Part shown: piece after piece, positions 13,895 to 15,831 of the stretch
How the letters are laid out: each line of letters opens with the position of its first letter
Numbering within the stretch: position 1 is the stretch's first letter
DNA from: an uncultured archaeon
GTDB lineage: Archaea; Iainarchaeota; Iainarchaeia; Iainarchaeales; CSSED10-239
Reading direction: 5' to 3'
NCBI GenBank assembly: GCA_964591795.1
Contig: CAZQEL010000002.1
Span: 38,412 to 64,995, forward strand
Length of the DNA: 26,584 bases
Program-made: the position numbers and the translations under genes
Notes under the pieces: model-generated
What the model saw: the letters and a program-made list of their open reading frames with translations, nothing else
Told to the model about the DNA's origin: nothing
Database searches by the model: none

Positions 13895-15831
13895 GAAAAA
13901 GCTTTTTCAAGTTTTAAAAGAGTGTTCCATTCTTTATCAATATTTTCTTGAATCTTTTTTATTTCTTTTTTATTTTTTAAAATATCTTTAAACTTTGTTT
14001 GCATTTTTAAAAATTCTTCAATTGGTTTTCTATTTGTTGGTTTGTGATTAATTTTATATTTACTATCTTCACATTCATAGAGTGGCCAAAAGTTTGTTTC
14101 TGTTGCAAGTTTTGAAATATCAATTGTTAAATCTTCAGGTGCTTTCATGTTTGTTGGACAAGCTGCATAAACAATTATTACAGCTGGGCCTTTTTTCTCA
14201 AAAGCTTTTCTGAATTTTTCATGCATGTCTAAAATATTACCAGGGTTAGCTGTTGCAACATATGGTATATTATGTGCAATTGCTATTTTTGCTAAATCCT
14301 TTTTAATTCCAGGTTTCCCACCAGGGGTTGTTGTGGTTGTAGCGTCCATAGGTGTTGCTGATGATCTTTGAGAACCAGTATTTTGGTATCCTTCGTTATC
14401 ATAACACACAAAAACAAAATCATGTCCTCTTTCAAGAGCTCCAGAAAGACTCTGAAGTCCAATATCAAAACTATTCATATTAAGACTAATTCTACCATCT
14501 TTTTCAATTATCATTATATGGTTTTTTTTAAGTTCTGGGCAATATATTTTTCCATTATAATCATAGCTTGATATATTTTTTTTTCTTAAATTTGCAAGGT
14601 TGGTTGGTTTATAATCTGAAAAAGAAATTGCATATTCAAATCTATTTTTTCTTTTTCTTTCATCTAAATGTACTCTATATCCTAATTTTAATGCAATTTC
14701 AATAACATCATCTTTTAATATTGGTGAAATTGTACTATAAGAATATGCTGTAGAGTTTTTTCTTTTAATTACTGTTCCATCACCTTCAATTAAGGCATCT
14801 AATAATATTTTTAAATATTTATTTGATAATTCTTTAAATTCTAATGGTATGAATTTATCTTTTGCTTTTCCAAATTGAGTTAGGTAAGTCCATAATTGTT
14901 GATTACTTATAATAAATCTATCTGTAGAGTACCAATAATTAAATTTAATTTTATTTAAACAATTTGTAATGTTAGTTATTGTTTTTTTCTTTGTTTGAGC
15001 TATAAACGTATTATATTTTTCTCTTTTTTTGGATTTTTTAGATAAGTGTCCTTCAGAAATCCAATATCCTAAAAAAGATAACCAATTTTTCATTTTTATT
15101 TTATTTAATATAACTTTGTTTCCTGAAATTTTATTATATTTTACAGATGGTAATGTAAAATATTGTTGATCTTTTCCATCCCATTTTAAATTTCCAGTTA
15201 TAATATTTATTTTATCACTTCTGCTATAATTTAAAAGTTTATGTGCTTTTATCACTTCAACTTTATTATTTAATTTATTGTATACTGGCACATTATGTAA
15301 TAATGACACATCAAAATGAACAAAATTATGATTAACGGATACGATTTTATTTTTATAGTTATATTTATGCATTTTAACTATTGTTGATTTTTCCATTTTC
15401 ATATTTTTAGGGTTTATTGACCAAATAATGTCTTTTGTATTAATATTTTCAACATTTTTAAAACCATTTTGTGTTAATATTTTTGTTCCAGGAATATAAC
15501 ATCCACCATCTCCTGCAAAAGCCATGAATTTAATTTCTTCTTTTATTTTATTTTTTCTTTTTAAAACTTTATATGCTGTTTCTACTCCAGAGATTGTTGC
15601 AGCTGCATTTGCAAATACAGAGTGTATCCATGGTTCGTTCCAGGATGTATAAGGGTAAATTGTAGTTGTTACTTCTGCACATGATGTTGCTGATGAAACT
15701 ACAATTTTTTTATCGGTTGCAGCATAAGCTGTTCTTAAAATTATAGTAATAGGGCATCCTGGACAAGTCCTATGGCCAGGCATAATTGCTTTTCTATCAT
15801 TTATTTTTTTTGCAAGTTCAATATTATTCAT
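13891..15831 (-). CDS. porB: Pyruvate/2-oxoacid:ferredoxin oxidoreductase beta (TPP-binding) subunit, interrupted by a 343-aa intein
   Basis: The N-extein has HRTCPGCP and ends FAGDGG. The C-extein resumes [37 protein letters not shown], completing the GDG...N TPP motif. The spliced length would be 303 aa, normal for PorB. Confidence 0.9.
   Translation of the reverse strand: [646 protein letters not shown]
14473..15501 (-). mobile_element. Intein with LAGLIDADG homing-endonuclease domain inside porB
   Basis: It starts with Cys ([10 protein letters not shown], block A) and has a block-B-like SLLH. Two LAGLIDADG motifs are present ([23 protein letters not shown]). Block F/G is [25 protein letters not shown], with terminal Asn and +1 Ser. 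The penultimate residue is Met rather than the usual His. Confidence 0.85.

Follow-up and report, generated by a model that had tools for sequence, protein, structure and literature searches.

A predicted LAGLIDADG intein in the thiamine pyrophosphate motif of the ferredoxin oxidoreductase subunit PorB of an uncultured archaeon

Why is the porB gene of an uncultured archaeon of the lineage Iainarchaeota (Iainarchaeales, CSSED10-239) about twice as long as a normal gene for this 2-oxoacid:ferredoxin oxidoreductase subunit? The gene is the last one of a por operon (porG-porD-porA-porB, minus strand) and is located in the window analyzed here, a stretch of 26,584 nucleotides with a GC content of about 25% (GenBank assembly GCA_964591795.1, contig CAZQEL010000002.1, positions 38,412 to 64,995 of the forward strand). 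The open reading frame (ORF) encodes a 646-amino-acid PorB precursor, and an earlier examination of the DNA and its translations, made without database searches (hereinafter, the sequence-only reading), attributed the excess length to an intein with a LAGLIDADG endonuclease that is inserted in the motif binding thiamine pyrophosphate (TPP). Profile, fold and alignment evidence converges on the same assignment, with the insertion point located one residue past the GDG of the TPP motif. We estimate at roughly 85% the probability that this 343-amino-acid insert is a splicing-competent intein of the class 1 type, the splicing function being predicted from the conservation of the pertinent residues.

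The insert comprises residues 111–453 of the precursor and is in frame, between the sequences GDGG and SFDIG. Its first residue, a cysteine, is encoded at positions 15499–15501 and its last one, an asparagine, at 14473–14475, so that the translation of the ORF reproduces, to the base, the boundaries given in the sequence-only reading (14473–15501). The accompanying claim, that excision would leave a normal 303-amino-acid PorB with a contiguous TPP motif, was checked by removing the insert in silico. The resulting 303-amino-acid protein aligned without a gap over the junction both with the beta subunit of the solved four-subunit pyruvate:ferredoxin oxidoreductase (PFOR; 9bt4_C, E = 6.5e-70) and with the beta subunit of oxalate oxidoreductase (5c4i_C, E = 2.2e-67), and the removal restored the GDG...N motif along with the full-length match to the PorB family. 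The NCBIfam PorB profile NF008819 matches the unspliced precursor in two stretches (E = 1.2e-94), of which the C-terminal one begins at residue 454, corresponding to profile position 103. The score of this match, 317 bits, is under the equivalog cut-off of 405, and therefore the substrate of this PorB could be either pyruvate or 2-oxoisovalerate. The cysteines of CPGC and TSC in the N-extein are, by analogy with the family, putative ligands of an Fe-S cluster. A protein identical to the precursor (P0001) is encoded on two contigs and is present in three data sources (ncbi, jgi and ena).

Searches with the insert as a single sequence were suggestive at best. Significant matches were obtained to the Pfam domains LAGLIDADG_3 (PF14528, E = 4e-10) and Hom_end (E = 2.5e-4), whereas a phmmer search of the PDB produced only weak N-terminal matches (E = 0.14–0.4), in which the beginning of the insert was aligned with the N-termini of BIL and AceL NrdHF inteins. 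Just 3 proteins were retrieved when the intein by itself was used to look for homologues, presumably due to a word-index limit, given that an exhaustive profile search shows the family to be huge. The weakness of these single-sequence searches called for a family profile and for structure prediction. The profile was derived from an alignment of the window intein with 16 relatives (17 sequences, 31–77% identity; hereinafter, the family alignment) and matched PI-PkoII (E = 4e-13), VMA inteins (E = 2e-8) and the KlbA intein of Mja (E = 1e-4). The AlphaFold2 model built on the same alignment has a mean predicted local distance difference test score of 90.6 and a predicted template-modeling score of 0.91, and the splicing domain in this model adopts the Hint fold. 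When the model was compared with the PDB using Foldseek, the top 16 matches all were endonuclease-containing inteins (E = 3e-16 to 6e-10, template-modeling scores of about 0.5–0.64), the best being TliVMA, PI-SceI, PI-PfuI, PI-PkoII and PhoVMA; further matches included free-standing LAGLIDADG enzymes, aligned with the middle domain, and Hint domains of mini-inteins and Hedgehog proteins, aligned with the ends. The LAGLIDADG_3, PI-PkoII and Foldseek matches are well outside what chance would produce and bear out the Hint and LAGLIDADG domains postulated in the sequence-only reading.

All the individual features that had been recognized by eye were found as well, namely Cys1, the SLLH of block B, two LAGLIDADG motifs, block F, the Met-Asn terminus and the serine at position +1, and the Cys1 and Asn-Ser junctions hold in a multiple alignment of 18 homologues with an intein at this same site (site a). 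Cys1 is invariant in the family alignment (17/17) and in a wider census of the clade (194/194; see below), and a threonine or serine precedes the block B histidine in 18 of the 18 site-a inteins. Conservation in at least 18 PorB homologues also extends to the acidic residues of both LAGLIDADG motifs, the block F histidine, the terminal asparagine and Ser+1. Over the 17 aligned sequences, with identity down to 31%, Cys1, His69, the position of Glu150 (flanked by glycine), Asp241 and Asn343 are invariant or nearly so. Both LAGLIDADG helices end in an acidic residue followed by glycine; the first one is aligned with LLGYYVSEGY of PI-PkoII and FLGYLIADGT of the VMA inteins, and the second one with GYFIGDGDV of PI-PkoII. 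In block F, YCPEL is aligned with YDLSV of PI-PkoII and YDLTV of the Mja KlbA intein, which identifies Cys321 as residue F:4. In PorB proteins that lack an intein, the +1 position is occupied by threonine, serine or, rarely, alanine.

According to the mechanism that we infer, translation of the por operon would yield the 646-amino-acid precursor, with the TPP-binding fold interrupted and the protein probably inactive. Splicing would start with an N-S acyl shift at Cys1, aided by Ser66 and His69 of block B, followed by an attack of Ser+1 on the thioester and by cyclization of Asn343, with His328 of block F probably standing in for the penultimate histidine; a final O-N shift would produce the 303-amino-acid PorB (...GDGG-SFDIG...) and the free intein. 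The freed endonuclease could then cut intein-less porB at the conserved sequence coding for GDGG/xFDIG, such that repair would copy the intein into the break. The dispersal of the element among DPANN archaea and bacteria of the phylum Omnitrophota would be the outcome of such homing.

Intein-free and intein-containing porB alleles with respect to the same site indeed exist in related genomes, as the 18 occupied homologues and one empty counterpart demonstrate. The latter (L082), on a 671-kb contig, is syntenic with the window, with the same gene order porG-porD-porA-porB, a convergent acs gene and then top6A and top6B, and its PorA is 76% identical to that of the window. In the PorB of L082, site a is empty (GDGG/AFDIG), and another intein site, site b, is filled. 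The empty site-a DNA reads GCTGGTGATGGTGGA before and GCCTTTGATATTGGACTTCAG after the insertion point, and at both sites the surrounding DNA of the window and L082 shows high conservation. This closest intein-free site-a allele (L082, 10001-12034) has an alanine at +1, in contrast to the serine or threonine of the intein-bearing alleles, so an intein inserted there would be unable to splice unless the codon was co-converted.

Several considerations weigh against the prediction of a splicing-competent intein. With the single sequence, the match to the Pfam family Intein_splicing (PF14890) scores 22 bits, below the gathering cut-off of 35.8; this family is present in the precomputed annotation of many of the homologues. 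Residue F:4 is a cysteine in place of the usual aspartate that coordinates both junction reactions, and the penultimate histidine is missing, so the chemistry may differ in detail from that of textbook class 1 inteins. Splicing and DNA cleavage are predicted functions for every member of the PorB intein group. Selection was assessed by comparing the window with its closest intein-bearing relatives, L002 and L003 (78% and 75% identity of the intein, respectively). The ratio of nonsynonymous to synonymous substitution rates (dN/dS) is 0.15 and 0.21 for the intein and 0.17 and 0.21 for the extein, and within the intein, 0.09–0.13 for the splicing domain and 0.20–0.32 for the endonuclease domain; all these values are approximate because dS is about 0.9–1.2, that is, near saturation in a 25% GC genome. 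Purifying selection on the exteins of all three intein-bearing alleles argues, indirectly, that splicing of the precursor yields a functional PorB. It is reasonable to infer, as the sequence-only reading did, that central metabolism in this organism depends on protein splicing, but other 2-oxoacid oxidoreductases could be encoded beyond the 26.6-kb window.

Whether the element is still mobile is a separate issue. We consider it probable that the endonuclease remains active, as predicted from its conserved motifs. The unlikely but most serious competing possibility is that the intein splices while its homing endonuclease is dead, in which case it would be a resident element that is inherited only vertically and is heading toward a mini-intein. 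Such decay does happen in porB, where endonuclease-less mini-inteins of 153–224 amino acids are common at site b, and the endonuclease domain of the window intein evolves under a weaker constraint than the splicing domain. Nevertheless, with this dN/dS, a domain dispensable for splicing is still clearly under purifying selection, the family shows little or no variation in the LAGLIDADG acidic residues or in the helices around them, and 18 of the 18 site-a inteins are full length (338–353 amino acids). Comparison of intein and extein identities bears on the same question. In four homologues (P0005–P0008), the intein is 63–70% identical to that of the window and the extein only 44–50%, whereas in three others (P0009–P0011) the intein is 33–37% identical and the extein 57–60%. 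This incongruence indicates putative horizontal homing between diverged alleles and implies repeated transfer, at odds with an inert endonuclease. Together with the conserved DNA target in the empty allele, it provides indirect support for the predicted site-specific cleavage of intein-less porB.

The site-a inteins are found in several groups of DPANN archaea (Ca. 'ainarchaeum', Diapherotrites, Woesearchaeota and Nanoarchaeota) and also in three independent assemblies of the bacterial phylum Omnitrophota (L023, L031 and L037), one of which is a single-cell genome. The Omnitrophota inteins are 63–65% identical to archaeal copies, with exteins only 45–57% identical, which suggests a possible cross-domain transfer, in which either the intein or the por genes would have moved. 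As for the window copy, its GC content is 21%, compared with 31–33% in the exteins. A recent foreign origin deduced from this difference was rejected because the low GC of the intein stems from a composition rich in Lys, Asn and Ile, and the GC content at third codon positions (GC3) is equally low in the exteins (11% in the intein vs 14% in the host). The match in GC3 points to an element that has long been resident, and the lack of a sign of recent arrival is one more point in favor of a dead endonuclease.

The penultimate residue requires a comment because the sequence-only reading flagged the methionine at this position as unusual. Met342 is indeed present where class 1 inteins typically, albeit not obligatorily, have a histidine (G:6), but this is not a defect of the window copy: among the 18 site-a inteins of PorB, the penultimate residue is glycine in 11, methionine in 7 and histidine in none. 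In experiments, a class 1 intein whose penultimate residue is glycine spliced completely, and the block F histidine has been proposed as a substitute for the penultimate one (PMC5050341, the latter citing Chen, Benner and Perler 2000). Residue F:4 is likewise a cysteine in all 18. To place these residues in a broader context, we drew on the exhaustive profile search, which retrieved 4,969 cluster representatives (clusters at 50% identity) at E <= 1e-30, and extracted a set of 194 inteins, all complete, from the top 147 of these. In this clade census, the penultimate residue is glycine in 92% of the inteins, histidine in 1% and methionine in 1% (2/194); cysteine occupies F:4 in 171 (88%), B:7 is threonine or serine in all but one, B:10 is histidine in all but one, and position +1 is serine or threonine in 85%. 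Hence, a non-histidine penultimate residue and a cysteine at F:4 are hallmarks of the clade, not peculiarities of this gene.

A cysteine at F:4, where standard inteins usually have aspartate, is a hallmark of class 3 inteins (PMC2807308). Membership of the window intein in class 3 was rejected: Cys1 is present, B:12 is valine and G:5 is asparagine, so that of the Trp-Cys-Thr triplet of that class only the F:4 cysteine is found. A variant of the class 1 scheme is still worth weighing, although we regard it as improbable. Under this alternative, the combination of Cys1, Cys F:4 and a non-histidine penultimate residue would represent a mechanistic splicing variant that has not been characterized, with the F:4 cysteine acting either as a second, relay nucleophile or as a disulfide partner of Cys1 that would make maturation of PorB conditional on redox state. 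By analogy, the F:4 cysteine of Msm DnaBi1 has a central place between the two junctions, where oxidative stress engages it in a reversible disulfide that keeps the intein from splicing (PMC6195587); the preference for serine or threonine at +1 also resembles class 3; the signature recurs throughout the site-a inteins and most of the clade; and redox-conditional maturation would suit an oxygen-sensitive enzyme. If true, PorB would mature only in a reducing cytoplasm, providing a post-translational redox switch for the central carbon metabolism of DPANN archaea. Plain class 1 splicing is favored by the invariant Cys1 and the retained (T/S)xxH of block B, which leave the standard N-terminal machinery intact; by the absence of the other members of the triplet (Val, Ile or Met at B:12 and Asn or Ser at G:5); and by the fact that in 23 of the 194 clade relatives, as well as in P0122, F:4 is aspartate, serine or glycine, so that cysteine is not obligatory.

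Less likely still is a degenerate Hint/LAGLIDADG domain that has ceased to splice, either as a permanent insertion that PorB tolerates or as the mark of a porB gene that has lost its function. The missing penultimate histidine and the sub-threshold Intein_splicing score could be taken this way, and a broken gene and an orphan ORF in the por operon (see below) hint at decay or insertion activity. All residues required for splicing are conserved, though, constraint within the intein is strongest on the splicing domain, the exteins of the intein-bearing alleles evolve at a dN/dS of 0.17–0.21, and a 343-amino-acid domain placed one residue past the GDG would be hard to square with TPP binding. Finally, the possibility that an assembly or binning chimera in these metagenome-derived data put the intein of another gene into porB is effectively refuted by recurrence in independent assemblies: site-a inteins are present in no fewer than 18 different PorB clusters and in several such assemblies, the identical protein comes from two contigs and three data sources, and the reading frame is continuous, with uniform GC3 over the junctions.

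Table 1. Features of the por operon and of the PorB intein in the window, with the evidence for each
Feature	Coordinates	Strand	Basis
porG	18662-19213	minus	por operon
porD	18370-18675	minus	por operon
porA	16643-17803	minus	por operon
porB precursor ORF, 646 amino acids with intein	13891-15831	minus	ORF; NF008819
N-extein, PorB residues 1-110, ends in GDGG of the TPP motif	15502-15831	minus	translation; alignment to 9bt4_C, 5c4i_C
Intein, 343 amino acids, Cys1-Asn343	14473-15501	minus	boundaries; conservation in 18 homologues; AlphaFold; Foldseek
Splicing block A, Cys1 as predicted N-terminal nucleophile	15463-15501	minus	C1, T6, T10 and G13 invariant in the family alignment
Splicing block B, Ser66 = B:7, His69 = B:10	15286-15318	minus	(S/T)xxH; His69 invariant
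LAGLIDADG homing-endonuclease domain, residues ~101-300	14602-15201	minus	LAGLIDADG_3; Hom_end; alignment with PI-PkoII and VMA inteins; dN/dS 0.20-0.32
LAGLIDADG motif 1 (ISEG), Glu150 putative catalytic acid	15046-15084	minus	W140, F143, G145 and G151 invariant
LAGLIDADG motif 2 (EGDG), Asp241 putative catalytic acid	14773-14814	minus	G240, D241 and G242 invariant
Splicing block F, Cys321 = F:4, His328 = block F His	14503-14559	minus	C321 nearly invariant in the family alignment
Splicing block G, RISLNMN, Met342 penultimate, Asn343 terminal	14473-14493	minus	N343 invariant; site-a inteins end in (M/G)N, 18/18
Ser+1, first C-extein residue, predicted transesterification nucleophile	14470-14472	minus	Ser 17/18, Thr 1/18 in intein-bearing alleles
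C-extein, residues 111-303 of spliced PorB, SFDIG... to C-terminus	13894-14472	minus	NF008819; extein alignment; translation
Empty site c, Val/Cys of FVFV/CYDNE	14404-14409	minus	filled only in P0067
Empty site b, Asn/Thr of YQN/TG	14377-14382	minus	filled in 87 of the best 120 homologues

The por operon of the window contains two additional genes. Between porA and porB lies a 259-amino-acid ORF rich in Lys and Asn (15838–16617, minus strand) that has no match in Pfam or PHROG and no tblastn match in L082, L002, L003 and other related loci, where porA adjoins porB; it looks like an orphan insertion within the operon. Between porD and porA, there is a gene for an HD-domain protein, a YfbR-like 5'-deoxynucleotidase (PF13023; approximately 17822–18375, minus strand), that L082, with its compact por operon, lacks. 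A single in-frame TAA (...EPIN, stop, LQVLK...) breaks this gene, which thus represents a pseudogene or else a split gene. On the opposite strand, acs (11960–13894, plus strand), which encodes a protein of 644 amino acids similar to AMP-forming acetyl-CoA synthetase, is convergent with porB, the two genes overlapping by 4 bp at the 3' ends; in L082, acs and porB also are convergent but separated by 55 bp.

Site a is one of three positions at which PorB is occupied by inteins. A search with the whole precursor found 620 PorB homologues, and when the best 120 of these were parsed for insertion sites, 106 were found to carry an intein. The site of the window intein, GDGG/C...N/(S/T)xDIG, accounts for the 18 cases described above. 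Site b, YxN/CLS...VVHN/TGxQRS, is the commonest one, with 87 cases, among which the full-length inteins span 366–372 amino acids. Site c, FVxV/C...SN/CYDNE, is occupied in a single protein, P0067. All three sites are confined to 31 residues that span the GDG...N motif. Sites a and b are filled simultaneously in P0002 (1023 amino acids), P0030 and P0037 and likewise in L002, and L003 carries a 162-amino-acid mini-intein at site b. The inteins of sites a and b are homologous (hhalign probability of 98.8%) but only about 19% identical, which implies separate invasions; this hhalign alignment stopped short of blocks F and G, so F:4 was assigned from the HMMER alignments with PI-PkoII and KlbA. Altogether, PorB was invaded independently at least three times.

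The clade to which the site-a intein belongs extends far beyond PorB, and many of its hosts are enzymes unrelated to replication that are interrupted at catalytic motifs. When the family profile was scanned over one genome per species, inteins of the same clade were detected in MCM of Methanoculleus and other Methanomicrobiales, in cyanobacterial sugar-nucleotide dehydratases of the short-chain dehydrogenase/reductase family (at the YxxxK motif), in carbamoyltransferases of DPANN archaea, in a B12/radical-SAM enzyme (just before CxxxCxxC), in ornithine cyclodeaminase, and in N4/N6 DNA methyltransferases (at (S/N)PPY). No experimental work was found on the combination of Cys1, F:4 Cys, penultimate Gly and +1 Ser or Thr that is typical of this clade.

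PFOR and related 2-oxoacid:ferredoxin oxidoreductases connect pyruvate to acetyl-CoA and ferredoxin. With PorB, a core enzyme of anaerobic energy and carbon metabolism joins the list of intein hosts and furnishes a clean example, at a cofactor site, of inteins lodging in the most conserved active-site motifs. The activity of PFOR in the genome-reduced DPANN archaea and Omnitrophota would depend on protein splicing, which makes the PorB inteins candidates for conditional control of metabolism, by redox state or temperature. There are also practical implications for annotation: porB genes coding for 630–1020 amino acids in metagenome bins are neither fusions nor errors and should be treated as intact por genes in metabolic reconstruction.

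How new is this host? The sequence-only reading had considered it unusual, and that judgment holds in part. Replication, repair and nucleotide-metabolism proteins dominate the intein hosts in published surveys (PMC4760082), and no intein in PFOR, PorB or another 2-oxoacid:ferredoxin oxidoreductase was found in the full-text literature or in the surveys PMC4760082 and PMC10710043, although an entry in the supplementary tables of PMC4760082 is possible. On the other hand, the element is no rarity, as the 106 of the best 120 PorB homologues attest; JGI annotation already labels some of these 'pyruvate/2-oxoacid:ferredoxin oxidoreductase beta subunit/intein/homing endonuclease'; and the clade is present in other metabolic enzymes. 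The JGI labels, the possible survey entry and the fact that metabolic hosts are not rare in this clade jointly limit the novelty. Thus, an element of a known kind appears to have here a new host and a new insertion site; it otherwise is a standard two-domain LAGLIDADG intein and an ordinary member of a very large family, and hundreds of PorB homologues with inserts reside unremarked in sequence databases. The finding would not surprise an intein specialist but is solid and useful for annotating the metabolism of DPANN archaea and Omnitrophota; arguably, the more interesting by-products are the clustering of three sites at the TPP motif and the clade-wide signature of Cys1, Cys F:4 and penultimate glycine.

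The nearest comparisons are with members of this clade found in other host proteins, which are 26–36% identical to the window intein over the full length and share with it Cys1, TxxH, the FLGxxxSEG motif and the F:4 cysteine, but differ in hosts and sites and end in Gly-Asn, in contrast to the rare methionine of the sub-clade that includes the window intein. The site-b intein of PorB shares the host, the TPP motif (31 residues downstream), the LAGLIDADG endonuclease, the range of organisms and sometimes the very same protein; however, it belongs to another lineage, has the canonical His-Asn end and a threonine at +1, is commoner (87 vs 18) and often is a mini-intein.

Among the structurally characterized LAGLIDADG inteins, archaeal and yeast, TliVMA (7qsu), PhoVMA (7qst), PI-SceI (1vde), PI-PfuI (1dq3) and PI-PkoII (2cw7) share with the window intein a Hint domain interrupted by a LAGLIDADG endonuclease, Cys1, the block B histidine, the terminal asparagine and insertion in a conserved active-site motif. 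They differ in being only 10–14% identical to it, in carrying aspartate at F:4 and, in those that were aligned, histidine as the penultimate residue, and in their hosts (V-ATPase, DNA polymerase and ribonucleotide reductase), none of which is a TPP enzyme. The intein of the mycobacteriophage Bethlehem protein gp51 (a recombination directionality factor) and others without a penultimate histidine likewise belong to class 1 and still splice (PMC5050341); the gp51 intein has a penultimate glycine and a phage host and is likened to the window intein here by the absence of the penultimate histidine. The class 3 inteins MP-Be DnaB and Msm DnaBi1, in turn, resemble the window intein in the F:4 cysteine and the preference for serine or threonine at +1 (PMC2807308, PMC6195587) but lack the N-terminal nucleophile and possess the Trp(B:12)-Cys(F:4)-Thr(G:5) triplet, whereas the intein of the archaeal PorB retains Cys1 and has valine and asparagine at B:12 and G:5, respectively.

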